Origin: Candidatus Latescibacterota bacterium
GTDB taxonomy: Bacteria; Latescibacterota; UBA2968; UBA8231
Assembly: GCA_965208105.1 (NCBI GenBank)
Contig: OZ242318.1
Span: 1,184,001 to 1,248,000, forward strand
DNA length: 64,000 bases
Direction of reading: 5' to 3'
The notes under the pieces are model-generated. The model was not told where the DNA came from, made no database searches, and saw only the letters and a program-made list of their open reading frames with translations. Position numbers and translations under genes: made by a program. Below, piece by piece: positions 12,060-62,417 of the stretch (its first letter is position 1; the number at the start of each line of letters is the position of its first letter).

Positions 12060-14990
12060 CTAGTAGAGACGCCCGTACTCGGTGAAGCCGATCAGGGTGC
12101 GCACGAAGAACGACCAGCTGTGGAACTCGTCGGCCTGCCGGAAGGGGTTGTCGAAATCCTTGCGGTTGCGCATGAGGCCGACGATGGTGAAGAGGTTGTA
12201 GCCGAAATAGCGCGAGCGGTTGGTCAGGCTGACGAAGGCGGTGCGCTGCTCGAAGCTGAGGCGCCGGCGGGCGCTGTCCTCGAGGCGGTAGGGCAAGGGC
12301 CCCATGCCCTGCAGCCCCATTCTCAGGTCAACCCGATCCATCAGGGGATACTCCAGGCGCAGGATGGGGATGGAGCGCCACTCGGAGCGCGTGGCGGTTG
12401 CGGCCTCCTGATCCAGCAGGCGCAGGAGCATGAACTTGTACTGCGGCGTCAGGCTCAGCCTGCCCAGGCTCCAGGTATACTGCGCCCGGCTGGACACGGT
12501 CCAGTAGTCCAGGCGGCGCCGGCGCTGGAAGATGCCCGGGCCCACCTCGCCGCCCTGCTGCCAGTTGAGCAGCAGGCGCACCTTCTGCACCAGGTGGAGG
12601 GATGACCAGGGGTTGAGGCTCCCCTCCAGGTAGGTCTCGTTGACCCAACTGTCGCGGTAGAGCAGAAGGTCCTCCCTCCTCTCCTTGTTGAAGAAGGAAA
12701 ACACGTTTATCTCCAGGCCCCCGTCCCCGGCTTTCACGCGGCCGCGGTTCGGCCTTTCCACCAGCGCCAGATACTCGTCGGCTATATCGTCCTGCACGCG
12801 GCGCAGGTGGTTCTCGAGGAAGAGACGCCGCAGCCGCCGCACACCCTCGCGTCTATAGCTCAGGATGGCATAGGTGGACCTGTTGCGCCCGGCGCCGGCA
12901 ACCTGGCCAACGGCGTAGCGTCCGGCGACCGCGGTCCAGCCCCGGGTCAGGTCCACCTGCCCGAACAGGTGCCCGCCGCGCTGGTCGGGGTCGTAGGGGA
13001 GGTCCGCATCCCAGTCGTCCTCGCGCTGGTCGGGCTCGCCGTTGTTGTTGCGGTCGAGGCCGTAGGTGTAGTCGTTGGGCTCCACGTCGAACATCAGGAA
13101 CGGCTCTTCGTAGTCGGGCAGGCTGTTGAAGTTGCGGTTGGTGTCGGGCCAGCCGTCGTTGTCCTCGTCCTGGCCCGGAAAGACCCCGGTGGGGTCCACC
13201 GAAACCGCATCCCTGCCGGCGCCGAGGATATGGCCAAGGGGCGCGTCGGGGTAGCGGTCGGCGTCCTCGTTGTCCTGCACCAGGCGCCAGTAGAGGGTGG
13301 CGTTGGTCAGGCCGGCCAGGTCGCCGTAATCGTACGTCAGCTCAGGTTTGAGATAGGTGCGCAGCTCGGTGCTGTAGTTCGGCTGCATGGAGAAGAACTC
13401 CGCGCCCACGCGCCCGCGCCCGAACCAGCGCAGGGCCTGCAGATAGAAGGCGTCGCCGCGGGCGGCGAACCGGGGCCCCTGCCCGAAGCGGCGCTCCCCT
13501 TCCTGGTGCGCCGGGTAGCGCGCGTAGACCGCCGAGCGCGCGTACTCGCCGTTGATCTCCAGGCCGGCGAGGCTGAAGTTGGCATCCGCGCCGTAGACGA
13601 AGAGAGCAGTGTTCTCCCCTACGTGGAAGCGTACCCGTTCCAGATTCGACAGGTCCCGGACATTGCCGGGGGCGCGCCGCACCGTGTGGTAATAGGTGCT
13701 GGTGAACTGGGAAGCAAAGTTGCGGCCGGTTGCATTCTTCTCCCACTGGACAGCCACGTCGATGCGGTAGTCGCTTCCGATCAGCGTCTCCACCTCCACC
13801 GAGCGCACCGCCGGTTCCTGCCTCAAGTCGAACATGTAGATCAGCACTTCATCGCCGTCGGCGCGGTGGACGGACCCCGGCGGTTCCACCACGTAGTTGG
13901 CCAGCAAGCCCTCCAGGTTGGTGGACGCGCTCACGTCCTGTCCGCTTTCGTGGGCCATCCGGTAGAGGTAGTCCGCATAGTGGGGAACTTCCCTGCCGCG
14001 GTAGTAGACGCCGCCGCCGAACGAGTAATATCCTATGGACGAGGGCCGGGTGTAGATGACGGGACGGAACTCGCCGGTGTTCCGGGAGACCGAGCCCACC
14101 TGGGTCGGCACGCCGCTGCGGTGGCGGATCACCTGGGGCGGGAGATCGGGCCTGGCCTCGCCGTCGAGGACGAGGCTGAGCTCCTGCACCACGGCGCCGT
14201 GGCCGTCGGCGGGCGAGTCGTCGGCGACGCGCACCATGATGAACTCGATGAGGGGATGGTCGGGCCGCACTCTCCCCTTGAGGCTGTTGCCCGGCCGGGT
14301 GCTCTGGTAGACGTGCAGGTTGACCCCGTTGAGGCCCAGCCGCAGGGCGCCGATGCGGGTCTGGGCGCGGCCCCCCAGAAGCAGGGTGTTGCTGTCGGAC
14401 ACGAAGGTGCCCTCGATGTTCCAGGGGGCGGAAATGCTGGTGGGGTTGGCGGGCTGGCGCTCCAGGCGCGAGGCCAGGGCCGTGATCTCGAGGCCCGGCG
14501 TGGCCAGATCCAGGCGCAGTCCGTTGAAGTCCACCTTCGACAGGGTGAGAGGGGTGAAGCGCGCGATCAGCCCGTCTCCCACGATTGCGCTCACGCCGCG
14601 GTCGCCCCAACTGTCGCGCGCCACCATCACGTGGTCGAACAGCGGGCGGAAGGCATTCAGGTCCTTGAACATGCGGCTGCCGAACTGCTGCCCCGGCAAA
14701 CGGGTCTCCGACCAGGTGTAGACCTCGTAGCCGGTGATGAGGTAGCTGCCCATGGAGCCGAAATAGGCCTGCGGCCGGCCCGCGAAGGGAAAGGAGTGGT
14801 CCGGCGGGTTGGTGAAGTTCCGCAAGGCATAGTTGCGATAGCCCGGTGGGTTGCGCTGCAGGAATGGCGAGGGCTCCACCACCTCGGGGACCTTGAGCTG
14901 GGCCTGACCCCTTTGCACCTGCGCCAACCCCCACCCCGGCGCGAGAGTCAGCAACAGGCTCCCGTACAGAAGAAATCTCAATGGTCTCAT
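12060..14990 (-). CDS. Large exported putative outer-membrane beta-barrel protein with Asp/Asn-rich repeats, paralogue 1
   Basis: Signal peptide MRPLRFLLYGSLLLTLAPGWGLA; amphipathic strands; QDEDNDGWPD/LDRNNNGEPD block; ends FFVRTLIGFTEYGRLY; three paralogues in the window. Confidence 0.65.
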   Translation of the reverse strand: MRPLRFLLYGSLLLTLAPGWGLAQVQRGQAQLKVPEVVEPSPFLQRNPPGYRNYALRNFTNPPDHSFPFAGRPQAYFGSMGSYLITGYEVYTWSETRLPGQQFGSRMFKDLNAFRPLFDHVMVARDSWGDRGVSAIVGDGLIARFTPLTLSKVDFNGLRLDLATPGLEITALASRLERQPANPTSISAPWNIEGTFVSDSNTLLLGGRAQTRIGALRLGLNGVNLHVYQSTRPGNSLKGRVRPDHPLIEFIMVRVADDSPADGHGAVVQELSLVLDGEARPDLPPQVIRHRSGVPTQVGSVSRNTGEFRPVIYTRPSSIGYYSFGGGVYYRGREVPHYADYLYRMAHESGQDVSASTNLEGLLANYVVEPPGSVHRADGDEVLIYMFDLRQEPAVRSVEVETLIGSDYRIDVAVQWEKNATGRNFASQFTSTYYHTVRRAPGNVRDLSNLERVRFHVGENTALFVYGADANFSLAGLEINGEYARSAVYARYPAHQEGERRFGQGPRFAARGDAFYLQALRWFGRGRVGAEFFSMQPNYSTELRTYLKPELTYDYGDLAGLTNATLYWRLVQDNEDADRYPDAPLGHILGAGRDAVSVDPTGVFPGQDEDNDGWPDTNRNFNSLPDYEEPFLMFDVEPNDYTYGLDRNNNGEPDQREDDWDADLPYDPDQRGGHLFGQVDLTRGWTAVAGRYAVGQVAGAGRNRSTYAILSYRREGVRRLRRLFLENHLRRVQDDIADEYLALVERPNRGRVKAGDGGLEINVFSFFNKERREDLLLYRDSWVNETYLEGSLNPWSSLHLVQKVRLLLNWQQGGEVGPGIFQRRRRLDYWTVSSRAQYTWSLGRLSLTPQYKFMLLRLLDQEAATATRSEWRSIPILRLEYPLMDRVDLRMGLQGMGPLPYRLEDSARRRLSFEQRTAFVSLTNRSRYFGYNLFTIVGLMRNRKDFDNPFRQADEFHSWSFFVRTLIGFTEYGRLY

Positions 14991-18610: not shown

Positions 18611-18744
18611 CGATTTCTCCCGTGGGAAACCCTGCCTTCGGCAAGGAATGGCGGCCATGCTCCAAGCGAAGAATTTGGCACCCTGAAGCTGGTCCTGTCA
18701 AGAAAAAGTGGGTGAGCCGGAAAGTTCCGGAGCCTGCCCTCCCT

Positions 18745-20031
18745 CTACCACGAGTCGACGCCGGCGAGCTTGCGGCCCAGGGGGGTGAGCCTGGCCTCCT
18801 CCACGTCCAGCTCCAGGCCGAACTCGGCGTGCATGAGCTGCGCCACGTCCCATTCGTTCCAGATGCGGCGGTCGTCGCGGCCGTAGGCCTCCCCGCCGCT
18901 GATTGTATTCGGCCAGTGGTGCTCGTTCCAGACGCTGCGGTCGCCGAAGTCGAAGGCGGCCGGAGTGCGGAGCAGGAGCTCGGGCAGGCGGGCAAGCTGG
19001 GCTGGGCTCAGCCGCGGCTCGTGCTGCGGCGCCGGGATCCGCTGGATCGATGCGGCCAGGCCCTCCTCGATGCGCGCCACCACGGGAAGGCCTTCCTGGC
19101 GGGCGTAGGAGTGGTGAACCTCGACGGTGGTCTCGTCCACGAACTCGACCAGGGACTTTCTCAGGATGACCTCGCGGCCCTGCGAACGCACCCGCCAGCC
19201 CGGGTAGGTGGGATGCTCTCCCAGGTTGGCCTCGATGCGCGCGTGGGCCAGGTCGCTGCCGCGATGCCGCCGCAGCCAGCGCTCGACGCCGGCCTCCCGC
19301 ACTCCCAGGGCGTCGGCGATCACCGCCTGGTAGGTCCGCGCCAGCGGCAGGACCCCGCTGCCCGGACCGGCGCCGGCGGGGTGCATGAGAATGTACTGGG
19401 CCAGGCGCGGGCGCTTCGAGGTGTTGCGCCCATTGCCGTGCAGCAGGGCGCCGTGCCAGATGAGCAGGTCGCCGGCCTTGCCGGGAATGGGCACGATATC
19501 GAGCCCGGTGGCATCCGGAGTCTTCGGATGGCGGTCCGGCGGCTGGGTCTCGGCCCACTCCTCGAGCTTGCGGTGGAAGCCCGGAACGCACTGAAACCCG
19601 CCCTGGTCCGCCGCCGTGTCGGTCAGGTAGAGCACCCCCTGCACCCTGAGCGGAATGGGGCGAATGGTGGAATCCATGTCCCAGTGGATGAAGCCCTCGT
19701 ACTCCCACCGGGGACTTACGGGGGGACTCACCGCCACCCGGTCCCGGGAGACGATGAGCTCCTCGGTGCCCAGGAGCTCGGCGAAGGCGGCGTGAACCCG
19801 CGGCGCCTGGCGGTTATCCCAGAGGGCCTGATGGACCGTCAGGTTCACCAGCCCCGCACCGGAGAACTGCACCAGGTCGTAGCATTCCTCGGGGTTCGTG
19901 CAGTCCTTGCCGGTGAATGCCTGCACCGCCTCGAGGACGGCGTCGAGGTTTTCCGGGGGGACCGCATCGGGGATGACGACGTAGCCGTTCTCCTCCCAGA
20001 ACTCGCAGTCGCTGGAACTCAGCGCACCCAT
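18745..20031 (-). CDS. PhyH-family Fe(II)/2-oxoglutarate dioxygenase with ~200 aa C-terminal extension
   Basis: FWEENGYVVI, HWD, GGFQCVPGFH, KAGDLLIWH..LLHG. Confidence 0.85.
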   Translation of the reverse strand: MGALSSSDCEFWEENGYVVIPDAVPPENLDAVLEAVQAFTGKDCTNPEECYDLVQFSGAGLVNLTVHQALWDNRQAPRVHAAFAELLGTEELIVSRDRVAVSPPVSPRWEYEGFIHWDMDSTIRPIPLRVQGVLYLTDTAADQGGFQCVPGFHRKLEEWAETQPPDRHPKTPDATGLDIVPIPGKAGDLLIWHGALLHGNGRNTSKRPRLAQYILMHPAGAGPGSGVLPLARTYQAVIADALGVREAGVERWLRRHRGSDLAHARIEANLGEHPTYPGWRVRSQGREVILRKSLVEFVDETTVEVHHSYARQEGLPVVARIEEGLAASIQRIPAPQHEPRLSPAQLARLPELLLRTPAAFDFGDRSVWNEHHWPNTISGGEAYGRDDRRIWNEWDVAQLMHAEFGLELDVEEARLTPLGRKLAGVDSW

Positions 20032-20122
20032 TGTTCTCTCCTTCGGATTCGGAACGCCCTTGCGCGGCGGGGCGCCCCCTCAGTCGGACCTGTCGGCGGC
20101 GGACGCGGCATTCCGGTTTCTC

Positions 20123-20920
20123 CTATGTCCACCGTTCGCAGCCGCGGAAGGCCATGTGGTCGCCGGCCACGTAGCGCGGGCTGGGCTGGTAGAGGTGGGT
20201 GTTGATTCCCGCGGCCGCTTCGCCGCGAAACAGGAATGCGCTGGGCCAGTCTTCCTGGACGATCCGGGTTGTGGCGGGGATGTACTGTATGGTACCGCCC
20301 CGGCGCCAGGAAGCGCTGCGGTTGGGTTCGGACCCGTGCACAAGCAGAGGGTGATGCACCGAGACGTCTCCGGGTTCGAGCTCCAGGTCCACCGCCCTGC
20401 CCGCATCGAGGACGGCGGGGTCAACCGGGTTGAGCAGGGTGTCGGCGTCCCTCCGCGGGGAATGTTGCTGAAGGCCCAGACGGTGGGACCCGGGGATGAC
20501 CCGGACGCAGCCGTTTGCCCGCGTCGAATGCGACACCGCAAACCAGACGGTGATGACTTCCATGGGTTCCAGGGGCCAGTAGTGGCCGTCCTGGTGCCAG
20601 TGGATCCCCTTGCCGGACCGGGGCGGCTTGGCGATGTAGTCGGCGGCGAAGAAGGCGATGTGCGGACCGACCAGGACCTGGGCGAGGTCGAGCAGGCGGT
20701 CGTCGCTGAGAAAGCGAACCCAGAACGGATCCCGGGCGATGAGCCAGTGCCCCAGTCCCTCCGGTTCCAGCTCGGGATGGCGCTCCATGAGCCAGTCGAT
20801 GTGGCGGTCCACCTCCCGGACCAGGGCAGGGTCCAGGACCGAGCGGACGACGGCGCACCCGTCGCGCGCGTAGGCGTCCTTCAGGCCGTCGAGCCGGCCT
20901 CGGTGGAACTCCCCGATCAT
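20123..20920 (-). CDS. PhyH-family dioxygenase
   Basis: WHQD, NGCVRVIPGSH, PGDVSVHH...VHGS. Confidence 0.92.
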   Translation of the reverse strand: MIGEFHRGRLDGLKDAYARDGCAVVRSVLDPALVREVDRHIDWLMERHPELEPEGLGHWLIARDPFWVRFLSDDRLLDLAQVLVGPHIAFFAADYIAKPPRSGKGIHWHQDGHYWPLEPMEVITVWFAVSHSTRANGCVRVIPGSHRLGLQQHSPRRDADTLLNPVDPAVLDAGRAVDLELEPGDVSVHHPLLVHGSEPNRSASWRRGGTIQYIPATTRIVQEDWPSAFLFRGEAAAGINTHLYQPSPRYVAGDHMAFRGCERWT

Positions 20921-20945
20921 CCGCTCTCCTCCATTCCCCCGGCGT

Positions 20946-21791
20946 TCATCCCTCGCTGAACCCGCGGCTCAGGCCCGTGTGCCGCTTGACCAAGTCCTTG
21001 AGTTCTCCCTTCTCCTTCATCGAGGCGAGCTCGATGGTGTCCGCGTCCAGCTCCAGCCCCCTGGCGCGGGCGTCTTCGAGGACCTGGTCCATGGCATCGC
21101 AGCAGTAGAACTGGGGCCGGTAGGAGTAGAACAGCATCACCCGCTCGCGGTCCTTCGGGAGCCAGGGCAAGGCCGCGTGATTGAGCCGCAGGGGCATGAT
21201 GATCATGTCTCCGGCGTTTGCGCACACGTTGATGAAGCCCTCCTTCTGGCGCTCCTCCGGATCGACGGGATAGGCGCCCTTCTCGTAGAACAGCTCGGGC
21301 GGATAAAGGAAGCTCGCCCGGTGGGATCCGGGCACCACGAGAAGGCCGCCGTCTCCCAGCCTCACCTCGGTCAGGTAGATGAAAAAGGCGGCCCAGTCGA
21401 TGTAGATTCGGCGGTTCACCACGTCCGTGTGGAACCTCGGCGCGTCCTCGTGTATCTCGCTCTTGATATCCTTGCGCAGATGGAAGTTGTGAAAGTCCTG
21501 ATCGCAGTTCTGGGTCATGAGGGTGCCGTCGGTGAGGCGCGGCATATTGTTGGTGATGTGGCATACATAGTCCAGCACTTTCGGCGAACAGGCGATTCTC
21601 TCCAGCACCTTGTCGTAGATGAAGGCGTTCCTGTACTTGTAGCCGTAGCCGGAGTCCTGCCTTAGGTCTCCATGGTCCCTGGCGATGCGCTCCGCACTTT
21701 CCAGCGCAAGGCCCAGGGTTTCGCCGTCGATGGCGTTTTCGACCTTGAGATAGCCCAGGGTATCGAACATGTACAATTCCTCTTCGGTCAT
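20946..21791 (-). CDS. PhyH-family dioxygenase (divergent)
   Basis: YMFDTLGYL, GGLLVVPGSH, AGDMII...LNHAALPW; start re-called to ATG 21791. Confidence 0.82.
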   Translation of the reverse strand: MTEEELYMFDTLGYLKVENAIDGETLGLALESAERIARDHGDLRQDSGYGYKYRNAFIYDKVLERIACSPKVLDYVCHITNNMPRLTDGTLMTQNCDQDFHNFHLRKDIKSEIHEDAPRFHTDVVNRRIYIDWAAFFIYLTEVRLGDGGLLVVPGSHRASFLYPPELFYEKGAYPVDPEERQKEGFINVCANAGDMIIMPLRLNHAALPWLPKDRERVMLFYSYRPQFYCCDAMDQVLEDARARGLELDADTIELASMKEKGELKDLVKRHTGLSRGFSEG

Positions 21792-21911
21792 ATCCCACCT
21801 GCTTTCAATTGGGTTGTGGTTGATACGTCCGCTGCACTCCGGTCGGGTGAACCGTCGAAAATTCCCGGCTTCCACTGACGCCGGCGGGGATTTTACCCTG
21901 GCCTGCGGCGC

Positions 21912-22880
21912 TCATGGGACCTCGAGGACCACCTTGCCGAAGGTCCGGTCGCCGGCGATGAGCCGGTGGGCTTCCTCGGTGCGGTCCATGGGGACGACGG
22001 CCTCGATCACCGGCCTGATGGCGCCCGCGGTGATGCGGGGCCAGACGCGGCGGCGCAACTCCGCGAGGATCTCCCCTTTCCGGGCGACGCTGCGCGCCCG
22101 CAAGGTCGAACCCATCAGCTTCAGGCGCCTGGCCATCAGCACCCCGATCGAGAAGGAGGCCTGAGCCCCGCCCATGGCGCCGATGAGCACCAGGCGGCCT
22201 TCGAGACCAAGGCACTCCAGATTGTCCGCCAGGTAAGGACCCCCAACCGGATCGAGGATGACGTCGAAGCCCTCTCCCCCGGTCCACTCCACCGCCCTGT
22301 CGGCGAAGCGCTCGCGGTGGCGGTTGCTGCCGCCGCTGGCGCCCAGGTCCAGGCAGCGGGCGATCTTGTCGTCGCTGCCGGCGGTGACGTAGCAGGGATT
22401 GCCGAACTCCCGGCACAACTGGATGGCGGCGGTGCCGACGCCGCTGGCTCCGGCGTGCAGCAGCGCCTTCTCCCCCTCTCTCAAACCAGCTTCCATGTAA
22501 AGGTTCAGGTAGGCGGTGGCAAAGACCTCGGGCAGGGCCGCGGCTTCGACCATGGAGAGACCCTCAGGAACCGGGAGCACCTGCGGCGCCGGGGCCACCG
22601 CCTTCTCGGCGTAGCCGCCGCCGGCGAGCAGGGCGCACACTTGATCACCAGGCCGCAGCCCCGCGACATCTTCTCCGACGGCCTCCACCACCCCGGCGCA
22701 TTCCAGGCCCAGTACCGCGCTGGCCCCGGGCGGAGGCGGGTAGGCGCCACGGCGCTGCAGCAGGTCGGCGCGGTTCACCGCGCTCGCCCGCACCGCAATC
22801 CCCACCTCGCCGGGACCGGGCCCATGGATCTCGCAGTCGGACCAGGTGAGCCTGTCTCCGTCGATCTGTATGGCTTTCAT
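21912..22880 (-). CDS. NAD(P)H-quinone oxidoreductase (PIG3/MDR family)
   Basis: VNRADLLQRRGAYPPPPGAS, LLAGGGYAE, HAGASGVGTA, GSTLRARS. Confidence 0.93.
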   Translation of the reverse strand: MKAIQIDGDRLTWSDCEIHGPGPGEVGIAVRASAVNRADLLQRRGAYPPPPGASAVLGLECAGVVEAVGEDVAGLRPGDQVCALLAGGGYAEKAVAPAPQVLPVPEGLSMVEAAALPEVFATAYLNLYMEAGLREGEKALLHAGASGVGTAAIQLCREFGNPCYVTAGSDDKIARCLDLGASGGSNRHRERFADRAVEWTGGEGFDVILDPVGGPYLADNLECLGLEGRLVLIGAMGGAQASFSIGVLMARRLKLMGSTLRARSVARKGEILAELRRRVWPRITAGAIRPVIEAVVPMDRTEEAHRLIAGDRTFGKVVLEVP

Positions 22881-23024
22881 GGCAGGGGCGGGTTTGCAGC
22901 TTCAACGGGAATGAGATTGCCGGGCCCAGAAAGGATACGCGATCAGCCATCCATGGGCAAGCCTCCGATGGCCCGGTTCCAGGGCAGCCGCGGCCAGCGG
23001 CGCGGCCTGGCTGCGGTCCGCAAG

Positions 23025-23053
23025 TTGACGCCCGGATTCTCCCTGCCTATTAT
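23025..23053 (+). promoter_or_regulatory. Putative sigma70 promoter for PhyH gene 23141
   Basis: TTGACG-17 nt-TATTAT. Confidence 0.6.
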
Positions 23054-23140
23054 CACCGCCGTCGCCCGGAGCTGGCCGGACCCCCGCCCTCGAGGGGCCG
23101 GGGACGATGCCCGGAGACACGGGCGCAAGGAGGAAATCTC

Positions 23141-23959
23141 ATGGCCTCGCGTTTGACTGCCGAGCAGGTGGAATCCTACCAGGAGGAGGGCTACCTGATA
23201 TACGACCAGCCGGTGTTTTCCCACGCCAGGTTCACCGCCCTCAAGGAGCACTGCGAGGCGCGCATGGCGGCATGGGAAGATGCCCTGGGCCGTCCCCTGC
23301 AGACCATCGACCGCTCCCACTTCATCGATCCCAAGCTGAACCAGTGGCTCCTGGCCGACGAGGTGCTCGATCTCGTCGAGCCCATCATCGGCCCGGACAT
23401 CGCCCTCTTCGCCAGCTCCTTCATGACCAAGTCCGCGGAGGTGGTGAAGCGCGCTCCCTGGCACGAGGACGCCTCCTACTGGGGCAAGCTCGCCCACCCC
23501 GTCGAAGCCTGCTCCGTATGGCTGGCCATCGATCCCTCGGTGAGCGAAAACGGCTGCATGCGGGTCATTCCCCGCTCCCACCGCCAGCGCAACCGCGAGC
23601 ACGTCTATCTGAGCGACGCCAGCGGGTCGCTGCTGAGCCGCGAGGTGAGGGCGGACGCCTTCGATGAATCAGAAGCGGTGGACTGCATTCTGGATTCCAA
23701 CACCTGCTCGCTGCACGACGCCTACCTGCTCCACGGCTCCAACGCCAACAACGGCACCATGCGCCGCTGCGGATTCCAGATGCGCTACATGCCGACGACG
23801 GTCAAAGCCAAGAGCTACAAGGGGCACTGCATGTACCTCGCCCGCGGCAGGGACCGCGCCGGCAACGAATACGGCGACCCCGACAAGGTGAACGAGGAAT
23901 TTCTGGCGGCCAATCCCGGGCAGCGGCTCCTGGCGGACATAGCCCGGGAGCTCGGCTGA
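23141..23959 (+). CDS. PhyH-family dioxygenase
   Basis: YQEEGY, PWHED, NGCMRVIPRSH, LLHGS; AAGGAGG RBS. Confidence 0.92.
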   Translation: MASRLTAEQVESYQEEGYLIYDQPVFSHARFTALKEHCEARMAAWEDALGRPLQTIDRSHFIDPKLNQWLLADEVLDLVEPIIGPDIALFASSFMTKSAEVVKRAPWHEDASYWGKLAHPVEACSVWLAIDPSVSENGCMRVIPRSHRQRNREHVYLSDASGSLLSREVRADAFDESEAVDCILDSNTCSLHDAYLLHGSNANNGTMRRCGFQMRYMPTTVKAKSYKGHCMYLARGRDRAGNEYGDPDKVNEEFLAANPGQRLLADIARELG

Positions 23960-29079: not shown

Positions 29080-29269
29080 AGCTTTCACCAACCTGCAATC
29101 CTGTTCCTCAGTTCGGTATGGTTACTATAAGAAACCGGAACCCCCGGCACCAGTAGCTACACCCCCATCCGGCACCCCTCGGGCAGGGCGTCATTGGGGC
29201 ACTCGGCGCGGTCCGGAGAGCACCTTCAGGCCGCCGTTTCGCATCGCGTCGAGGCGATTGCGGTCCAAC

Positions 29270-37006: not shown

Positions 37007-37161
37007 GGCACCTGTCCTTCGCTCAGGGAATGGTATTTTCGCTGCCGCACGGGTCCATGGAGGGCTGAAGATAGCGGCTCCCCCATTACTTGACAACCGC
37101 TGCAGCCGCCCTACCTTCTGGCCCGGTATCAAGGGCAACTCACCTTCCGGATCCACCCCCG

Positions 37162-41370: not shown

Positions 41371-41410
41371 GGTGATCTCGCGCCCGTCTCACACGGGGCG
41401 GGAGATCACC
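41371..41410. terminator. Strong hairpin between convergent genes
   Basis: GGTGATCTC.CGCCC / GGGCG.GAGATCACC; no U-tract. Confidence 0.45.
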
Positions 41411-44335: not shown

Positions 44336-44516
44336 TGAAGTTGCTCCTGGGTTGGGACGGCGGCAGCGGCGGAATGGTGCAGGTCCTGCAGGGGCAGGCC
44401 TCATCCGGCCGCCGCCGCCAGCTCCGGTTGTTATTTTTCAGGAAGAATTCGACTCCCCGCTCCTGCCTCGAATGAGAAGGGTCATTCCCTTCCGAAGTAC
44501 CCTGCGGACCAGGGGC

Positions 44517-50944: not shown

Positions 50945-51003
50945 CCTCGCCTGCCCGGTGTTTCGAGCCGGGTATCTCTGCAACTACATTCCGAACAGGC
51001 AAT

Positions 51004-51038
51004 AAAAAAGCAGGGGAGGAGCAAAGCTCCCCCCCTGC
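51004..51038 (-). terminator. Intrinsic terminator after FlgD-domain gene 2
   Basis: GCAGGGGGGGAGC-TTT-GCTCCTCCCCTGC-TTTTTT on the minus strand. Confidence 0.8.
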
Positions 51039-51061: not shown

Positions 51062-52990
51062 CTACTTGAGCAGAGTCATTGAATGCGTCGCGGCGAAATC
51101 GCCGGCCTGCATGCGATAGAAGTAGACTCCGCTGGACACCTGCTTGCCGCTGAGGTCCACGGCATCCCAGGTTGTGCGGTAGGAACCCGCGCTCAACTCC
51201 TCGTCCACCAGGCTCACGACCAACTGACCGGCGGTGTTGAAGACCTCGATTTTGACGAAGCCGTCGCTGGGCACGTTGAAATCGATGGTGGTCTCGGGGT
51301 TGAAGGGGTTGGGATAGGCCGCGCCCAGGGCGTAGCTGTCGGGCGTGCCGGCGCCGTCAACTGCCTCGACGACGGTCCCGACGCCCTCGCCCAGCTTGGC
51401 GCTGGCCACGGTGTACGGGGTGTGCAGCAGCATGCCGGGGCCGTACTTGGCCTCCGACGGATAGACGCCGCGGCCGCCTTCATGGTCGATCAGCCTCAGC
51501 CCGCAGGTGCTGTAGAGACCGTCGTAGGCGCCGCCGCCGGGGCCGTTGCCTTCGCCCTCGTAGGTGGCGTTGAACCTGGTGCCGCCGGGACGAAAACGCC
51601 CCCAGGACACCGGGAAGCTGATGGCGAGGATACCGGAGCCGTCGCGGCCGACCACGCCGAAGGTGGTGGGGCCATTGACTCCGACCATGTTGAAGAAGGA
51701 GATATTTCCCCCGGTGCCCGGATCGATGGACGAGCCGGTGATGTTGATCGGGGGACTGGGGACGCCGCCGATCGCGGCCGCGGCCTCGATGCTGAGGCGG
51801 TCTCCGTAGCCGTCGCCATTCTCGTTCACCCAGAGGACCTCGCCGCTGTTGCGGTCCATCCCGACGATGGCCTGATGCCCCCAGGCCGAGGTCAGGATCA
51901 AGTCTCCCTGCACGTCGATCTGGCGCGGACCTCCGGACCTGACGGTCTCGTTGCCGTCGTCGTCGGTGCCGTAGACGTGGTAGAAATCGCCCAGGTCGAA
52001 GGCCTGCATGGTCTCGCCATTGGCCTTGTCCCTGACCTCCACCGCGCTGAAGGGCACTTCCTGGACCCCGTGCAGGGTCTGGTAGAGGACGCCATCCTTG
52101 GGAACCATCTCGAGGATGCGGTCGCCGTTGGTGTTGTGCGAACGGCCGTTGTCAGCCCAATCGGTGACCAGATCCCAGGACTTGGAGGGGCGGTTGATCC
52201 TGAGCTTGTAGATTCCCTGGTCGGGGTCCTTGTACTCGTTGGACCAGAAGACCTCAAGGTCTACGTCGTCCTGCTTGAGGCCGCTGAGGGTTCGCGCCCC
52301 TTCCCAGGGCATGGCGGCGCTGTAGGACCAGCGCTCGAAGGCGGTGGGATTGGCCAGATAGTCCGTGCCTATGGTGGCGCGGATCATGTCGCCGATAGTG
52401 TGGTAATCGGTGGAGCGCTCGTATTCCTGCACGAAGATCTCTACCGGATCCTGGGTGAGGTCGATGTTGGGGCGGGTGAAGCCAGAAGGACCGGTCCCCG
52501 GACCGACCAGGGTCAGGGGATCGAGATTGTTGACCACCACCACGTCGAACTCGTAGGTACCGGCGCCGGCGGCATTGCCATCGAAATCGTTGCCGTCCCA
52601 GGTGATGCTGTTGTCGCCGGCCTCGATCGGCTGCCCGCTGGGGGGCACGGTGGCGACGTAGAGGTCCTGCGCGACATAGCGCTGCCAGGCACCGCCCGGA
52701 CCCCGGTTGCCCGTGGCCGAGTTGCCTGTCTCGTAGATGACTACCCACGCGGTGCCGCGGCTGCTGGAATTGAACGGAATGGTCACCGATCCGCTGCCGT
52801 CCCAGCCCACGTCCTGGGTCGAAGCGCGGATGGGAGTAGGATTACCCGACTTATCGGTGAGGGTGAAGATATTTCTATCCTCGCCGTGGCCGTAATCATA
52901 GCCGGGAACGTAGGTGTCCTCGGCGGTGGCTGCACCGGCAATCATGGCTGCCATGGCCCCGGCCAGGAACGTGAGTTTGAAACTCCTCAT
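51062..52990 (-). CDS. Secreted protein with N-terminal FlgD-Ig-like and C-terminal FlgD/T9SS type A-like domains, paralogue 2
   Basis: Signal peptide; ITWDGNDFDGNAAGAGTYEF; AYPNPFNPETTIDF...SSGVYFYRMQAG...MTLLK. Confidence 0.82.
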   Translation of the reverse strand: MRSFKLTFLAGAMAAMIAGAATAEDTYVPGYDYGHGEDRNIFTLTDKSGNPTPIRASTQDVGWDGSGSVTIPFNSSSRGTAWVVIYETGNSATGNRGPGGAWQRYVAQDLYVATVPPSGQPIEAGDNSITWDGNDFDGNAAGAGTYEFDVVVVNNLDPLTLVGPGTGPSGFTRPNIDLTQDPVEIFVQEYERSTDYHTIGDMIRATIGTDYLANPTAFERWSYSAAMPWEGARTLSGLKQDDVDLEVFWSNEYKDPDQGIYKLRINRPSKSWDLVTDWADNGRSHNTNGDRILEMVPKDGVLYQTLHGVQEVPFSAVEVRDKANGETMQAFDLGDFYHVYGTDDDGNETVRSGGPRQIDVQGDLILTSAWGHQAIVGMDRNSGEVLWVNENGDGYGDRLSIEAAAAIGGVPSPPINITGSSIDPGTGGNISFFNMVGVNGPTTFGVVGRDGSGILAISFPVSWGRFRPGGTRFNATYEGEGNGPGGGAYDGLYSTCGLRLIDHEGGRGVYPSEAKYGPGMLLHTPYTVASAKLGEGVGTVVEAVDGAGTPDSYALGAAYPNPFNPETTIDFNVPSDGFVKIEVFNTAGQLVVSLVDEELSAGSYRTTWDAVDLSGKQVSSGVYFYRMQAGDFAATHSMTLLK

Positions 52991-56734: not shown

Positions 56735-59458
56735 TCAGAGCAGGCCTCCGTACTCGGTGAAGCCGATCAGGGTGCGCACGAAGAAGGTCCAGGCGTGGAA
56801 GTTCTCGTCCCTGCGGGACGGCGCGTCGAAGGCGATGGAGTCCCGGTCGAACCCGACGATGGTGTAGAGGTCGTAGCCGAAATAGCGCGAGGGATTGGTC
56901 AGAGTGGCGATGAAGGTGCGGCGCTCGTAGCTCTCCAGCCTGCGCGCCCGGTCCTTGTAGCGATAGGGCAGGGGACCCCAGCCCTCGAGGCCGAGGCGCA
57001 GCACGGTCCGGCTCATGAGCTCGTAGTTCAACAGCAGAATGGGAATCACGTCGTACTCCCGGCGCATGAAGCGCCCGGTGCGCTGATCCACGAAGCGCAT
57101 GAAAAGGAGCTTGAACCGGGGCTCCAGGCTCAGACGGCCGCGGCGCCAGGTCCAGTCCACCCGGCTGACCGCGGTCCAGTGGTCCAGGCGCCGGCGGCGC
57201 GCCGGATATCCCGCCGCCGACAGCCCACCCTGCTGCCAGTTGAGCCGCAGCCGCGCCTTCTGCACCAGGTTGAGCGCAGACCCCAGCCGCAGCCGCGCTT
57301 CGAAGTAGGTCTCGCCCACGTAGCTGTCCTTGTAGAACAGGGGATCCCGGGTCAGCTTGGGCAGCAGGGTGTGGACCCCCCAATAGGAGCCCGTGTGCAC
57401 CGAGCTGCGGCGGTAGACGTCCTCGAAGCGGCGCTCGCGGTCCACCACGGTATAGGGATCCGGAATATCGTCCTGCACCCGGCGCCAGTGGCTCTCGAAG
57501 AAAAACTCGTCGGCGCCGTCCTCTTTGCGGAAGGTCAGCAGGGCGTAGGTGGACTCGTTGCGTCCGGGACCGGCGATCTCCTGCACGTGGAAGCGCCCCG
57601 CCCCCAGCGACCAGTAGCGGGTCAGATCGATCTGCGCGAAGACGTGGAAGCCGCGCTGATCGCGGTCGTAGGGGTAGTCCGGATCCCAGTCGTCCTCGCG
57701 CGCGTCGGGCTCGTCGTTGTTGTTGCGGTCCAGGCCGTAGACGTAGTCGTTGGGTTCCACGTCGTACATCAGGAAGGGCTCCAGATAGTCGGGCAGGCGG
57801 TTGTCGTTGCGGTTGGTGTCGGCGAAGCCGTCGTTGTCCTCGTCGCCGCCCAGGTAGACCCCGTCCAGGTCCCCGGAGTCGGGTTTGCTGTCGCCGTCGT
57901 CGTTGTCCTGGACCAGCCCGTTGTAGAGGGTATCCACCGAGAAGAATTCACCCCCCAGGCGCCCACCGGAGAACCGGTGGACGGCGTTGACGAACCAGGC
58001 TGGTCCGCGATCGGCGAAGCGCGGACTGAGGTCGAAGGCGGGGCGGTGATCCAGGTGGGCAGGATAGCGGCGGTAGATGGACGAGCGCGCGTACTCTGCG
58101 TGGACCTCGAGGCCCGGAAGGACGAGGTTCAGGTCGGTGCTGTAGACGAAATGGGCGGTCCACTCCCCGACCTCGAAACGCACCCTCCTGAAGTTGGATC
58201 CGTCCCCAACGTTTCCCCTGGCGCGAAACACGGCTCTGTAATGACCGGCCTCGAAGCGCTGCAGGTAGGTTTTGGCCCCCGGCCTGATTTCCCGGAGGGT
58301 AGACCAGCTGACCCGGCAGTCGTTGGCCACCAGGGCCTCCGCCTCCACCGAGACGATGTCCGGCTCCCGCGAAAGGTCGAAAAGGAATATCAGCTCCTCG
58401 TCACGCCCGGCCTGGAGCACTCCTCCTGGGTCGGCCAGCGCGAAGCGGTTGAGCAGCCCCGGCAGGTTGGTGTTGGCGCTCACGTCCACTCCGAGCTCGT
58501 GGTCGATGCGGTAGAGGTAGTCGGCGTAGAGCGGGATGTTGCGCCCGCGGGTGTAGTGCTTGGGGCGGAATACGCCCTCGGCCTGGGAAATCTGCCCCAC
58601 CTGGGTCAGCGCGCCGCTGCGATGGCGGATCGCAAAGGGCCGCAGGTCCGGCCGCCTTTCTCCGTTGACGATCAACTCCAGCTCCTGGACGGTGGAGCCG
58701 CCGCGGCCGTCGTCCGGGGAGTCGTCCTCGATCTTCACCAGCAGCCACGAGGCCATGCGCCGGTCGGAGCGCAATCTTCCCTTTAGGCTGTTGCCCGCGC
58801 GGTCACTCCGATAGACGTGGCTGTTGGCCCAGTTCAGGCCCAGGCTCAGGGCACCCAGGTCGGCCTGAAAGCGCTGGGCCAGCATCATGGAGGAGTTGCC
58901 CAGGTGGTGGCCCGAGCGGCGGGCGTGGGAGGTGGATTTCAGGCGCGGGGTGGAGACGTCCAGGCGCAGCCCGCTGGTGCGCGCCAGGGACATGGTCAGG
59001 GGGGTCAGAAACAGGGTCCCCGACGAACCCACTATGGCGCTGTAGCCCCAGCCGCCGTACCCGTCGCGCGCCACCACCTGGCCGCCGATGCTCTCGATCG
59101 CGCTGCCGCACTGCCGGCTGTTGTCGACCTCGCAGCTCAAACCGGGCAGGCGCCACTCGCGCCAGTTGTAGAAGTAGTATCCCTTGATGAGGCGGTTGCC
59201 CAGGGGACCGTAATAGATCCGCGGCGCGTCCCCGTAGGGTTCCTGGTGGTTCGGGTACTGGGTGTAGGTGTGGATGGCGTAGTTGCGGTAGGCAGGATGA
59301 GGGCGCCTGAGCAGGAATCTCTGCGCCGCCACCTCGGGCAGGGCAAGGTGGGCATCCCTGTCCTCGGCGCCGCCGCTGGCGGGGTGAACCAGGGAAAGGG
59401 AAAGAAGGAGAAGCGGCCACAGGCCCGGAGCGGGTGATCTCGAGCCTTCGGCGTCCAT
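56735..59458 (-). CDS. Large exported putative outer-membrane beta-barrel protein, paralogue 3 (loop-reduced)
   Basis: Signal peptide; DEDNDGFAD/LDRNNNDEPD block; ends FFVRTLIGFTEYGGLL. Confidence 0.65.
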   Translation of the reverse strand: MDAEGSRSPAPGLWPLLLLSLSLVHPASGGAEDRDAHLALPEVAAQRFLLRRPHPAYRNYAIHTYTQYPNHQEPYGDAPRIYYGPLGNRLIKGYYFYNWREWRLPGLSCEVDNSRQCGSAIESIGGQVVARDGYGGWGYSAIVGSSGTLFLTPLTMSLARTSGLRLDVSTPRLKSTSHARRSGHHLGNSSMMLAQRFQADLGALSLGLNWANSHVYRSDRAGNSLKGRLRSDRRMASWLLVKIEDDSPDDGRGGSTVQELELIVNGERRPDLRPFAIRHRSGALTQVGQISQAEGVFRPKHYTRGRNIPLYADYLYRIDHELGVDVSANTNLPGLLNRFALADPGGVLQAGRDEELIFLFDLSREPDIVSVEAEALVANDCRVSWSTLREIRPGAKTYLQRFEAGHYRAVFRARGNVGDGSNFRRVRFEVGEWTAHFVYSTDLNLVLPGLEVHAEYARSSIYRRYPAHLDHRPAFDLSPRFADRGPAWFVNAVHRFSGGRLGGEFFSVDTLYNGLVQDNDDGDSKPDSGDLDGVYLGGDEDNDGFADTNRNDNRLPDYLEPFLMYDVEPNDYVYGLDRNNNDEPDAREDDWDPDYPYDRDQRGFHVFAQIDLTRYWSLGAGRFHVQEIAGPGRNESTYALLTFRKEDGADEFFFESHWRRVQDDIPDPYTVVDRERRFEDVYRRSSVHTGSYWGVHTLLPKLTRDPLFYKDSYVGETYFEARLRLGSALNLVQKARLRLNWQQGGLSAAGYPARRRRLDHWTAVSRVDWTWRRGRLSLEPRFKLLFMRFVDQRTGRFMRREYDVIPILLLNYELMSRTVLRLGLEGWGPLPYRYKDRARRLESYERRTFIATLTNPSRYFGYDLYTIVGFDRDSIAFDAPSRRDENFHAWTFFVRTLIGFTEYGGLL

Positions 59459-59462: not shown

Positions 59463-62417
59463 CTAGAACAAACGATCTCCGGCTCCGGGGAACCCGATCA
59501 GGGTGCGCACGAACAACGAAACCACGTCGAAGTTCTCGGCCTCGCGGAAGCGGGCGTCGAACTCCATGTCGTCCCTGTTGACCCCGACGATGGTATAGAG
59601 ATCGTAGCCGAAATAGCGCGAGTGATTGGTCACCGTGGCGGTGAGGGTGCGGCGATCGAAGCTTTCGAGCTTGCGCGCCTGGTCGCTGAAGCGGTAGGGA
59701 AGAGGTCCCCAGCCCTGGACCCCGAGGCGCAGCACCGTGCGGCTCATTAGGTCGTAGTTGACCTCGAGGATGGGAATCAGGTCGTACTCCAGGCGCATGA
59801 TGCGGTCGATGCCCTGGTCGACGTAGCGCAGCAGCATGAACTTGAACTTGGGCTGCACCCGCAGCCTGCCCAGGCGCCAGGTATAGTCCATCCGGCTCAC
59901 GGTGGACCAGTAGTCCAGCCGCCGGGTGCCGCTGGCAAGGCCCGGAGACAGGTGACGGCCTTGCTGCCAGTTGAGGCGGAGGCGCAGCTTCTGCACCAGA
60001 TTGAGGGTGGACCAGGGCCGCAGCCGGGTTTCCAGGTAGGCTTCCTCGACGTAGCTGTCCCGGTAGCGCAGCGGGTCGGCGCGCAGCCGGTTCTGAAAGG
60101 CCCGGTTGCCCCAGTAGCGGTGGTGCACGAAGTAATGGTAGATGCCGACGAAGCGGCGCTCCTGGGCGAGCACCGTGTACTCGTCCGGGATGTCGTCCTC
60201 CACCCGGCGGAAGTGGTTCTCGAAAAAGACGCGCCGCAGCCGGTCCACTCCCTCGCGGCGGTAGGTCAGCAGGGCGTAAGCCGATCTGTTCCGTCCCGAC
60301 CCGGCGATCTCCTCGACGTCGTAACGACCCGCCCCCAAGGACCAGTGGCGGCTCAAATCCACCTGGGCGAAGAGGTGGAAGCCGCGCTGGTCCTGGTCGT
60401 AGGGATAGTCCGGGTCGCGATCGTCCTCGCGCTGGTCCGGTTCGTCGTTGTTGTTGCGGTCCAGCCCGTAGACGAAGTCGTTGGGTTCCACGTCGTACAT
60501 CAGGAAAGGTTCGAGGTAGTCGGGCAGAGCGTCGCCGTCGCGGTTGACATCCGGGAAGCCGTCGTTGTTCTCGTCCTGGCCGAGGTGAACCCCGTCGGCA
60601 TCGGTGTCGGTGTCGTCCCGGTAGATGCTGCCGATGACGAAGCCGATGCGCTTGTCGGGGAATCCGTCCCCGTCCTCGTTGTCCTGTACCAGGTCCCAGT
60701 AGATGGTCTCGTTGGCCAGCCTGCTGATGTTGCTGCGGCGGACGCCAACGCCCGGATCCCAAAGTATGAAGTGGGACATGGTAGTGGTGAAACCGGGGTT
60801 CATGGCGAAGTACTCGGCGCCCAGGCGCATATGCCTCCACCAGCGCGTGGCATTGATGAAGTAGGCCGATCCCGCCTCCGCGAAGCGCGGGCTGCGGCCG
60901 AAGAGCGGCTCCTCGAGGGAGCGCGCCGGATAGCGCCTGTAGAGGGCGGAGCGGGCGTACTCCCCGTTGATCTCCACGCCGACCAGTTGCAGGTTGAGGT
61001 CTGCGCTGTAGGTGAAGATCGAGGTGCTCTCCCCCAGATCGACCCGCCTGCGCTCCAGGTTCGAAAGGTCCCGCACCTGCCCCGGTGCGCGCAGCACGGT
61101 GCGGTAGAAGCCGCTTCTGTACTTCACCTCATGGCCTTTGCCGCGCGGGTTGAAGTGCTCCAGGGTCGCCACCTCCACCCGGTAGTCGTTGCCCACCACC
61201 GCTTCCAGTTGCAAAGACTCCACGTAGGGTTCCTGCGCCACGTCGAAGATGTAGACCACCTGCTCTTCACCGTCGGCGTGCAGCGTCGCGTCGGGAGATT
61301 CCACCGCGATATTGGCCAGCAGTCCTTCCAGGATGGTATTCTTGCTCACGTCCACCCCGTCTTCGTGGTCGAGGCGGTAGAAATAGTCGGCGTAGAGGGG
61401 GATCTCGTTGCGCCCGCGGTAGAAGGGGAGGTTGACCGATCGCGGCGTCGTGTAGGGCCTGGGGATGAACCCGCCGGTGGCCTGGGAATAGGTCCCCACC
61501 TGGGGCCGGACCCCGGCCAGATGGCGCACCACTCTGGGCCGCAGGTCCGGGCGCGCCTCGCCGTTGACGATCAACTGCACCTCCTGCACCACCGCCCCCC
61601 CTCCATCCCCCGGCGAATCGTCGCTGAAGCGCACCAGAATCCGGTCCCACAGCGGCTGGTCCGAGCGCAGCACCCCTTTCATGCTGTTGCCGGGCTGGGT
61701 ACTCTGGTAGACGTGCATATTGGCGCCGTTCAAACCCAGGCGCAGGGCCCCCGCCTCACCCTGCAGGCGGCTGCCCAGGATCAGGGTGGAAGCATCGGCG
61801 AACTGTACGTTTTCGAAGTGCCACAGCGCATACACGTCATCTCCGGAATCCTTGATGTAGTAGGGACGCTCGATGCGCGATCCCAGGGCCGTGAATTTCA
61901 GATGGGGGGTAGCCACATCCAGGCGGATTCCGTTGAAATCCGTCCTCGACAGGGTCAGGGGCGAAAACCGCGCCACCAGACCGTCCCCCACCATGGCAGA
62001 GTAGTTCCAATTGCCGTAGCCGTCCTGTCCTATGGCGATATAGTTGAATACCTCGGTCCAGGTAGCTTCGTCCTTGCTGATGAAGCTGCCCCACTCCTGG
62101 CCCTCGCGGCGCTGCTCGCCCCAGTCGTAGAGCTTGAAACCGTTGAAAAGAAAGTTCCCCAAATCGTCGTAGAAGTAGACAGGTTTGTAGGAATCTCTCA
62201 GGGCTTCTGTCTGGGGGATGGTGTGGAACTTGTAGTTGTCGAAGTTGTCGAAGGCGAAATTGCGATAGGTGGGGTTTTCCCGGCGCAGGAAGGTGAGCCC
62301 GGGCATCACATCCGGAAGGGATACCCGATTTTCCTGCGCCGCCCCGCCGGCGGCCGTGCTCCACCCGGCGAGCAGGGCGATGAGGACCCTGAGGATGTGG
62401 GTGGGGGAAAAGCGCAT
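59463..62417 (-). CDS. Large exported putative outer-membrane beta-barrel protein, paralogue 4
   Basis: Signal peptide MRFSPTHILRVLIALLAGWSTA after AAGGAG; QDENNDGFPD/LDRNNNDEPD; ends LFVRTLIGFPGAGDRLF. Confidence 0.65.
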   Translation of the reverse strand: MRFSPTHILRVLIALLAGWSTAAGGAAQENRVSLPDVMPGLTFLRRENPTYRNFAFDNFDNYKFHTIPQTEALRDSYKPVYFYDDLGNFLFNGFKLYDWGEQRREGQEWGSFISKDEATWTEVFNYIAIGQDGYGNWNYSAMVGDGLVARFSPLTLSRTDFNGIRLDVATPHLKFTALGSRIERPYYIKDSGDDVYALWHFENVQFADASTLILGSRLQGEAGALRLGLNGANMHVYQSTQPGNSMKGVLRSDQPLWDRILVRFSDDSPGDGGGAVVQEVQLIVNGEARPDLRPRVVRHLAGVRPQVGTYSQATGGFIPRPYTTPRSVNLPFYRGRNEIPLYADYFYRLDHEDGVDVSKNTILEGLLANIAVESPDATLHADGEEQVVYIFDVAQEPYVESLQLEAVVGNDYRVEVATLEHFNPRGKGHEVKYRSGFYRTVLRAPGQVRDLSNLERRRVDLGESTSIFTYSADLNLQLVGVEINGEYARSALYRRYPARSLEEPLFGRSPRFAEAGSAYFINATRWWRHMRLGAEYFAMNPGFTTTMSHFILWDPGVGVRRSNISRLANETIYWDLVQDNEDGDGFPDKRIGFVIGSIYRDDTDTDADGVHLGQDENNDGFPDVNRDGDALPDYLEPFLMYDVEPNDFVYGLDRNNNDEPDQREDDRDPDYPYDQDQRGFHLFAQVDLSRHWSLGAGRYDVEEIAGSGRNRSAYALLTYRREGVDRLRRVFFENHFRRVEDDIPDEYTVLAQERRFVGIYHYFVHHRYWGNRAFQNRLRADPLRYRDSYVEEAYLETRLRPWSTLNLVQKLRLRLNWQQGRHLSPGLASGTRRLDYWSTVSRMDYTWRLGRLRVQPKFKFMLLRYVDQGIDRIMRLEYDLIPILEVNYDLMSRTVLRLGVQGWGPLPYRFSDQARKLESFDRRTLTATVTNHSRYFGYDLYTIVGVNRDDMEFDARFREAENFDVVSLFVRTLIGFPGAGDRLF

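Follow-up and report, generated by a model that had tools for sequence, protein, structure and literature searches.

The DNA examined here, a 64,000-nucleotide stretch of a Candidatus Latescibacterota genome (contig OZ242318.1, positions 1,184,001 to 1,248,000; the whole stretch is called the window below), carried ten genes of three uncharacterized families. We called these families B (large exported proteins, predicted to be outer-membrane barrels), D (polytopic membrane proteins with the domains DUF6785 and DUF6784), and F (exported proteins with FlgD-Ig domains and a C-terminal sorting domain of type IX secretion). An initial annotation of the window had proposed that the three families form a three-part module. 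We gave about an even chance to the reading that the window is part of a chromosome dense in facultative nutrient-uptake cassettes, similar to utilization loci, that are built from these families. In related genomes, the linkage of B, F, and D genes was far above what chance would give, and the tight unit was F-B, with F directly upstream of B and with D more loosely attached. We had moderate confidence that F works with B, and moderate confidence that B, F, and D serve one pathway.

In the pathway that we infer, including the location of each protein, the direction of transport, the contact between F and B, and the substrates, B would be a Sec-exported barrel of ~950 residues and roughly 26 to 30 strands, distantly similar to SlpA, that serves as the substrate channel. 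F would be exported to the cell surface via type IX secretion. There it would work together with B, either in a capture or lid function or as the enzyme of the first step. D, a putative inner-membrane secondary transporter of the OPT/Yellow-Stripe fold, would bring the substrate into the cytoplasm, and a variable set of enzymes (PhyH dioxygenases, amidohydrolases, aminotransferases, and sugar-acid and glycosidase-like enzymes) would then process it.

Latescibacterota are uncultured and widespread, and their route of substrate uptake is the gap addressed here. The B, F, and D families were unnamed in the sources that we searched. What is new is the model-based assignment of DUF6785/DUF6784 to the OPT/Yellow-Stripe fold, the definition of a large family of predicted giant barrels, and a type IX-sorted family that co-diverges with the barrels. 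The families are candidates for an uptake route that uses neither TonB nor ABC components, and they provide a marker set for inferring the substrate preferences of the phylum from genomes.

The ten genes in the window

Genes were chosen on the basis of G+C content by codon position together with Pfam and NCBIfam matches. All ten open reading frames (ORFs; four B, four D, and two F) were present, and their frames had the codon-position pattern of real genes, with a third-position G+C of 0.78 to 0.90. The G+C content of the window was 0.64 to 0.70 in 4-kb windows, with a lower value (0.59) in the segment from 4 to 8 kb. The ten genes were as follows.

12060..14990, minus strand: B1, large exported beta-barrel-like paralogue 1; translation probably starts at the Met preceding the signal peptide, and the longest ORF extends to 15107
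23987..25966, minus strand: P1 (D family), polytopic membrane protein with DUF6785 and DUF6784 and a predicted OPT/Yellow Stripe-like (YSL) fold (Pfam, model)
26116..29091, minus strand: B2, the barrel paralogue used for modeling (paralogy, model, Foldseek)
29433..31427, plus strand: P2 (D family), divergent from B2
31724..33631, minus strand: F1, with a signal peptide, an N-terminal FlgD-Ig-like domain, a body, and a C-terminal type IX type A sorting domain
41406..43379, minus strand: P3 (D family), between a nucleoside hydrolase gene and a PhyH gene, with neither B nor F adjoining
48965..50983, minus strand: P4 (D family), immediately downstream of F2
51062..52990, minus strand: F2, paralogue of F1 with 40% identity (Pfam, NCBIfam, BLASTP)
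56735..59458, minus strand: B3, barrel paralogue in tandem with B4 and immediately downstream of it
59463..62417, minus strand: B4, barrel paralogue; the signal-peptide-bearing start is at 62417, and the frame is open to 62906

The copy numbers given in the initial annotation (four large exported, four polytopic, and two FlgD-Ig paralogues) held up when ORFs, Pfam matches, and BLASTP alignments were compared. Full-length identities were 46 to 51% among B1 to B4, 50 to 53% among P1 to P4, and 40% between F1 and F2. The coordinates also agreed with the annotated gene order. B2 preceded P1 by 150 bp, in the same orientation, and was divergent from P2, with 342 bp between B2 and P2; F1 was convergent with P2, and F2 was located 78 bp upstream of P4. 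Within the window, B2 was the only barrel gene that adjoined permease genes. As the annotation had reported, no TonB-dependent receptor, ABC ATPase, or TRAP component was recognized among the 49 distinct ORF translations scanned, several of which were in the wrong frame; Plug was likewise without a match. Scans of the window with Rfam and for tRNA genes detected no RNA element.

B, F, and D genes are linked in related genomes

Related loci were collected by scanning one genome per species with a permease alignment. This yielded 178 pattern matches, of which 163 were confirmed, and the best 80 gave 72 loci. Hidden Markov models built from the window families were run on all six-frame ORFs of the 72 loci. 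Two loci (L001 and L029, on chromosome OZ244619.1) were syntenic with the window, with 87 to 91% protein identity.

In 39 of the 72 loci, a B gene was located no more than 10 kb from the central D gene; a protein with the F body was encoded within this distance in 30 loci, both were in 22, and neither was in 25. When the central D genes were collapsed at 80% identity or higher, 32 clusters remained; 16 had B within 10 kb, 13 had F, and 11 had both, so that B and F co-occurred near D above independence (Fisher p = 0.003). The density of barrel genes on chromosome OZ244619.1 (5.9 Mb) pointed the same way: 14 loci that made up 5.2% of its DNA contained nine barrels, which has P = 8e-8 if there are 14 barrels genome-wide and would be unremarkable only if there were near ~100.

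Several arrangements recurred. F was followed by B with gaps of 4 to 136 bp in L003/L048, L004/L005, L007, L036, and L065, and F was followed by D with gaps of 34 to 137 bp in L008/L071, L017/L042/L044, L029 and the window, and L064. In the class represented by L014 (13 loci, 11 of them with all three families), the order was B, a gene similar to the U family described below, F, an FG-GAP/ASPIC gene, a TPR gene, and D. In the class represented by L030 (12 loci), the order was two genes for proteins with the C-terminal sorting domain (CTD), two barrel genes, and an amidohydrolase gene, and two or three D genes adjoined.

F and B co-diverge, and one whole cassette was apparently duplicated

Pairwise identities were compared in 10 nonredundant modules via a Mantel test. 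The identities of F and B correlated with r = 0.73 (p = 1e-4), and the values were r = 0.29 (p = 0.04) for F and D and r = 0.31 (p = 0.045) for B and D. Because some of the modules come from different genomes, these correlations were inflated by shared ancestry, and the informative part is the contrast between the F-B pair and the pairs that include D. In addition, the cassettes L007 and L036, which are 36 kb apart on one chromosome, were mutual nearest paralogues in all three families (61% identity for F, 71% for B, and 80% for D), which indicated that a whole cassette had been duplicated.

D proteins have the predicted fold of Yellow Stripe 1

All four D proteins matched DUF6785 (E values of 5.7e-70 to 1.3e-82) and DUF6784 (3.6e-17 to 1.5e-18) in Pfam. 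The model of P1, built with a 44-sequence alignment, was all-helical, with a pLDDT of 88.1 and a pTM of 0.90. In a Foldseek search of the PDB, P1 had two matches at E ≤ 1e-3, and both were barley Yellow Stripe 1 (YS1; 7wst_A and 7wsr_A). The E values were 1.3e-6 and 1.8e-6, with a probability of 1.00, TM-scores of 0.61 to 0.68, and ~670 aligned columns that spanned the whole length; the match that ranked next had a TM-score of 0.10. Thus, the model corresponded to both the core and the scaffold of YS1 over its full length, at a sequence identity of 11 to 12%.

Because YS1 was the sole significant fold match in the PDB, we read D as a secondary transporter of the OPT/YSL fold. Judging from the model, we had high confidence that D is a very distant transporter with this fold and is not a member of the superfamily at the sequence level, and we read DUF6785 and DUF6784 together as one predicted transporter. 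YS1 is described as a proton-driven symporter of the OPT group that is built from core and scaffold domains and works by an elevator-like mechanism (PMC9691689). By analogy, D may be a proton-coupled, elevator-type importer. The fold agreed with the annotation of the polytopic proteins as permeases. It did not agree with the annotated view that the permease is an unrelated part, since OPT/YSL is the fold of a characterized superfamily. D resembles YS1 and other OPT proteins in fold, size, and polytopic helical architecture; it differs in being bacterial, in its copy number (17 or more D genes in the 14 loci of chromosome OZ244619.1), and in having no sequence-level match to them. At least 196 D homologues were found, all of them unnamed or labeled "hypothetical," and a full-text literature search found no paper on DUF6785 or DUF6784.

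In L011 (10022-20213), L048 (6049-11971), L055, and L058, three or four D genes were arranged in tandem and neither B nor F was present, which points to expansion of the family through tandem duplication. Genes for large NHL-repeat beta-propeller proteins adjoined D genes without B and F in L066 (7390-9771) and L067 (5675-9824), and these proteins may be another kind of D partner.

B proteins are predicted to be large outer-membrane barrels

Each of the four B proteins in the window had a Sec-type signal peptide. Their only Pfam match was SlpA_C (PF21620, a beta-barrel domain), with scores of 17.3 to 25.8 bits, which are below the cutoff of 35. The same family was a precomputed label on some B homologues. 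A profile search of 1.84 billion representatives (50% clustering) yielded 795 proteins at E ≤ 1e-3, of which 248 reached E ≤ 1e-30. When 30 full-length representatives were compared to Pfam, 27 had no family, two had weak, sub-cutoff SlpA_C matches, and one had an unrelated N-terminal domain. SLH, Plug, TonB_dep_Rec, POTRA, ShlB, and secretin domains were found in none of the four window copies and none of the 30 representatives, and a sequence-profile search of the PDB with B yielded nothing useful.

The model of B2 (built with a 47-sequence alignment; pLDDT of 75.9, pTM of 0.75) had approximately 26 antiparallel strands of 10 to 18 residues, with a confident inserted domain at approximately residues 295 to 462 and a poorly modeled, Asp-rich insert at approximately residues 560 to 680. 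The conserved first 140 residues had a pLDDT below 50. The annotation had described the large proteins as barrel-like, and the Foldseek results bore this out: all 27 PDB matches at E ≤ 1e-3 were outer-membrane barrels, and none were soluble enzymes. The matches were MtrB (E = 1.3e-8), SlpA (E = 2.1e-7), the SlpA complex, TonB-dependent transporters including SusC, LptD, and SprA of the type IX translocon (E = 1.7e-4). On the strength of the model, we had fairly high confidence that B is an outer-membrane barrel.

The second-best fold match and the only Pfam similarity of B were both to SlpA, and we therefore considered whether B is a structural envelope protein of the SlpA/OmpM kind, i.e., a tether between the outer membrane and the cell wall or an S-layer anchor, instead of a channel. 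SlpA is described in the source as a 30-strand barrel that has pore insertions with Asp metal sites and carries a coiled coil and an SLH domain; it is argued there that the pore, which is filled by the metal-binding insertions, may be nonconducting (PMC9388160). B also has an Asp-rich insert, which probably binds metal. Like SlpA of Deinococcus radiodurans and OmpM, B is a very large single-chain outer-membrane barrel according to its model. However, the TM-score to SlpA was ~0.2, the B family lacked the SLH domain, as noted above, and the B2 model lacked a coiled-coil stalk, since its sole long N-terminal helix was the signal peptide. Furthermore, B proteins are multicopy, and their genes are located beside genes for transporters, CTD proteins, and enzymes; one abundant scaffold would not be expected to have numerous divergent paralogues in each genome in such a setting. 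Thus, it seemed very improbable that B is a structural protein, and we continued to view B as a candidate substrate channel.

Residues ~30 to 140 of B1 to B4 were conserved and aromatic rich (window positions 28670-29000 in B2). The mature N terminus of B started with (P/S)(E/D)V right after the signal peptide, where a TonB box would be located; the model has low confidence in this region, and Plug was not detected. In L004 (5427-9863), a barrel gene was present as overlapping fragments beside a DDE transposase gene and is probably a disrupted copy.

F proteins carry a type IX sorting domain

The Pfam families named in the initial annotation were all matched: DUF6785 and DUF6784 in the four D proteins, and FlgD_ig and Por_Secre_tail in both F proteins. 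F1 and F2 each matched FlgD_ig in two stretches, and their Por_Secre_tail scores were 28.2 and 33 bits (cutoff of 27). Both also matched the NCBIfam model of the type IX secretion type A sorting domain (TIGR04183), with 37.9 and 37.8 bits against a cutoff of 23. The layout of F was a signal peptide, an N-terminal FlgD-Ig-like domain, a body of ~380 residues, and a strongly conserved C-terminal sorting domain, with no lipobox and no SusD domain. Like type A cargo of type IX secretion, F thus combined a signal peptide with a CTD that passed both TIGR04183 and Por_Secre_tail; it differs in that the body is in no described family. No Pfam family matched the body, and homology over the body extended to 15 clusters only; the remaining 23 matches shared just the C-terminal domain. 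No internal repeats were found in the body with hhalign (best probability, 2.8%). In the protein atlas, the only F neighbors were Por_Secre_tail clusters with beta-propeller bodies, which we took as a lead only.

The annotation had assigned F a binding role at the surface or in the periplasm. The prediction that F is exported stood, and a periplasmic binding role became unlikely because F carries the type IX sorting domain; F may instead be a surface binding protein. Latescibacterota belong to the FCB superphylum, and type IX secretion is reportedly specific to that superphylum. Our literature search found no paper on type IX secretion in Latescibacteria, and a search on outer-membrane transporters of Latescibacterota gave none that was relevant judging from title or abstract. 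No ORF of at least 1,300 aa, as would be sought for the type IX machinery, was present in the window or in locus flanks of up to 22 kb, which was the scope of this search.

B as a possible translocator of sorting-domain proteins

As an alternative, the initial annotation had proposed that the barrels export CTD proteins of the PNPFNP type. In this reading, B would serve specifically to translocate such proteins across the outer membrane or to anchor them there, F would be the commonest of them, and D would be a mere neighbor. We counted the neighbors of the 24 barrel clusters that had a visible N terminus. A CTD protein was encoded directly upstream on the same strand in seven clusters (F in five and other proteins in two), compared to ~5% CTD genes (p = 1e-4, with an approximate background). 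Two barrel clusters followed another barrel, and three were divergent from D. In the barrel tree, the barrels linked to CTD or F genes were scattered and formed no clade. The trait common to the upstream proteins was the CTD; the F body was not shared by all of them. A 740-aa CTD protein whose body is unrelated to F preceded two divergent barrels in the L030 class, and in the L014 class a CTD-ending ORF stopped 44 to 47 bp ahead of B. The co-divergence of F and B would fit a cargo-translocator pair equally well, and SprA was among the Foldseek matches of B2.

Other observations were not easily reconciled with a role of B in export. The CTD of F passed the curated type IX type A model, which points to the standard SprA route, and B had no POTRA, ShlB, or secretin domain. 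In terms of strands, the ~26 in the B2 model compare to 16 in the Omp85/ShlB barrels of two-partner secretion. CTD ORFs that are not F were the majority in the examined DNA (38 of 71), yet such ORFs were directly upstream of only two barrel clusters, and half of the barrel clusters had no CTD neighbor. The loci were also rich in catabolic enzymes and importers. Taken together, we considered it quite unlikely that B is a translocator or anchor, and a channel that acts with F remained our preferred function for B.

Comparison with SusC/SusD loci and other channels

The initial annotation had compared the module to SusC/SusD loci, which are polysaccharide utilization loci of Bacteroidota. The two share the logic of a barrel gene paired with the gene of a predicted surface protein, present in many co-diverging copies, with each copy beside different degradative enzymes and an inner-membrane importer. 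In our loci, adjacent, co-duplicated barrel and surface-protein genes were indeed found beside enzyme genes that varied from locus to locus, and to this extent the analogy was sound. It did not extend to the defining features of SusC/SusD systems (plug, TonB box, SusD fold, and lipoprotein), which the cassettes lack: B had no Plug or TonB_dep_Rec domain, and F had no SusD domain and no lipobox. F is predicted to be sorted via the type IX CTD, whereas SusD is sorted by lipidation. In addition, the surface-protein gene comes first here, and the inner-membrane partner has a predicted OPT fold.

A more far-reaching proposal is that F-B represents a class of gated outer-membrane importers, in which a 26- to 30-strand SlpA-like barrel with a co-evolving, type IX-sorted lid feeds an OPT-fold elevator symporter, and that F-B-D cassettes are the Latescibacterota counterpart of polysaccharide utilization loci and the main organic-matter uptake route of the phylum. 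We put this forward tentatively, as a possibility that is more doubtful than probable.

OprD/Occ channels of Pseudomonas are also outer-membrane proteins with many paralogues per genome, often encoded beside catabolic or uptake genes, as B is. Occ barrels are small (18 strands) and are not known to have a partnered secreted protein, and their resemblance to B is one of copy number and gene setting.

Evidence against a cassette and the possibility of unlinked functions

Several of our results weighed against the interpretation of B, F, and D genes as uptake cassettes. The locus sample was centered on D and was almost entirely from Latescibacterota; the others were eight from Gemmatimonadetes/Gemmatimonadaceae and three labeled uncultured bacterium. 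Neither B nor F was present within 10 kb in 14 of the 32 D clusters, and 12 of the 24 barrel clusters had no CTD protein, D, or barrel gene adjoining. Similarly, five of the six barrel clusters that apparently come from chromosome OZ244619.1 fell outside the D-centered loci. In the window itself, three of the four barrel genes (B1, B3, and B4) and one of the four permease genes (P3) had no adjacent partner. The annotated three-part module was thus upheld as linkage beyond chance, but the triad is facultative. Proteins of the cytoplasmic U family (see below) were encoded near D, at a distance of up to 10 kb, in 12 of the 32 clusters, and part of the clustering may therefore be a general trait of catabolic islands. 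Lastly, hairpins with a folding free energy of -12 kcal/mol or lower followed F in 7 of the 15 junctions in which B or D was the next gene.

The structural predictions were also subject to such evidence. Pfam OPT was absent from the D matches at E ≤ 10, at which only DUF6785 and DUF6784 were listed, and a search of the PDB with a D profile of 44 sequences did not retrieve YS1 at E ≤ 10. The Foldseek TM-scores of B were low (0.1 to 0.3). In three tests of the B2 strands, which had no known barrel as calibration, an alternating hydrophobic face was no better than in shuffles (observed versus shuffled values of 1.50 versus 1.49, 1.46 versus 1.46, and 1.40 versus 1.28, with 530 of 2,000 shuffles reaching 1.40), and our confidence in the barrel was slightly lowered for this reason. 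The PDB profile search with F gave no fold for the body and returned weak FlgD-Ig matches only (E = 0.006 to 0.07).

Many of these results would be expected if there were no functional module, and B, F, and D were simply expanded families of independent porins, secreted proteins, and permeases that gather in catabolic islands. The high copy numbers per genome fit this explanation: besides the D genes in the 14 loci of OZ244619.1, those loci hold the nine barrels, and five more barrel clusters are apparently from the same chromosome. The D clusters without B or F, the unrelated U proteins near D, and the hairpins between F and the following gene fit it as well. On the other hand, same-strand gaps of 4 to 140 bp recurred for F followed by B and for F followed by D in several independent clusters, and the same arrangement was present in the divergent L030 class. 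The co-occurrence of B and F given D (p = 0.003), the F-B co-divergence (r = 0.73), and the duplication of the L007/L036 cassette are likewise difficult to attribute to independent families. We considered the absence of a functional module unlikely and favored facultative uptake cassettes.

Hairpins downstream of F genes

The hairpin in the window was located immediately past the F2 stop codon, as follows.

51010..51038, minus strand: terminator-like hairpin that separates the stop codon of F2 from the start of P4, with a G+C-rich 13-bp stem (10 G-C pairs) followed by a T run

Hairpins at F junctions were present in L004, L005, L017, L029, L042, and L044, as well as in the window. A terminator-like hairpin after F weakens a simple one-operon reading; it would fit the production of F in excess over its membrane partners.

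Enzymes and other genes near the cassettes

The genes interleaved with B, F, and D in the window encoded five PhyH dioxygenases, two metallophosphoesterases, hydantoinase/oxoprolinase A and B, two class III aminotransferases, a DAO-type flavoprotein, a nucleoside hydrolase, dehydrogenases, and DUF3604/CehA-like, AIR-synthase-like, and cobalamin-independent methionine-synthase-like proteins. One group adjoined a D gene and is presumed to act in cytoplasmic processing, as follows.

18745..23959, strand not assigned: cluster of five genes adjoining P1, four for PhyH dioxygenases and one for a Zn-dependent alcohol dehydrogenase

The neighbors in other loci varied. They included GHL6/GH42-like, GH116, GH32, and heparinase-like proteins; the sugar-acid enzymes UxuA, MR_MLE, DHDPS, and GFO_IDH_MocA; M19 dipeptidase, CN hydrolase, amidohydrolases, creatininase, and a phosphotriesterase-family protein; and racemases, aminotransferases, DAO flavoproteins, a sulfatase, and, very often, PhyH dioxygenases. 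D genes without B or F had the same type of gene surroundings. The variety of the neighboring enzymes suggests that the substrates of D are diverse.

PhyH dioxygenase genes were the commonest neighbors of D. The five in the window were located at 18745-23959 and 43484-44404, and copies beside D were also present in L004, L012, L014, L033, L036, L045, L057, L063, and L068.

Genes for FG-GAP/UnbV_ASPIC proteins recurred near F and D, at 33897-40261 in the window, 7277-9924 in L014, 15173-17626 in L017, and 15188-17470 in L066. In the window, two gene pairs that each combined FG-GAP/UnbV_ASPIC with TPR adjoined F1. The same pairing was present in L014, and in the L014 class, which spans many genomes, the pair was located between F and D.

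The U family consisted of three window paralogues of ~500 aa with 31 to 33% identity (5309-6940, 9502-11013, and 17162-18658, all on the minus strand). They lacked a signal peptide and matched nothing in Pfam or NCBIfam. Their atlas neighbors were unnamed Planctomycetota clusters, and the nearest named clusters were BNR/sialidase-like. U was sometimes immediately upstream of D, as in L069 (4-bp gap) and L072. One of the U paralogues was located in the low-G+C segment of the window (4001-8000; G+C of 0.59), together with a gene for a Fic/DOC-domain protein (7017-7907, minus strand), and this segment may have been acquired separately.

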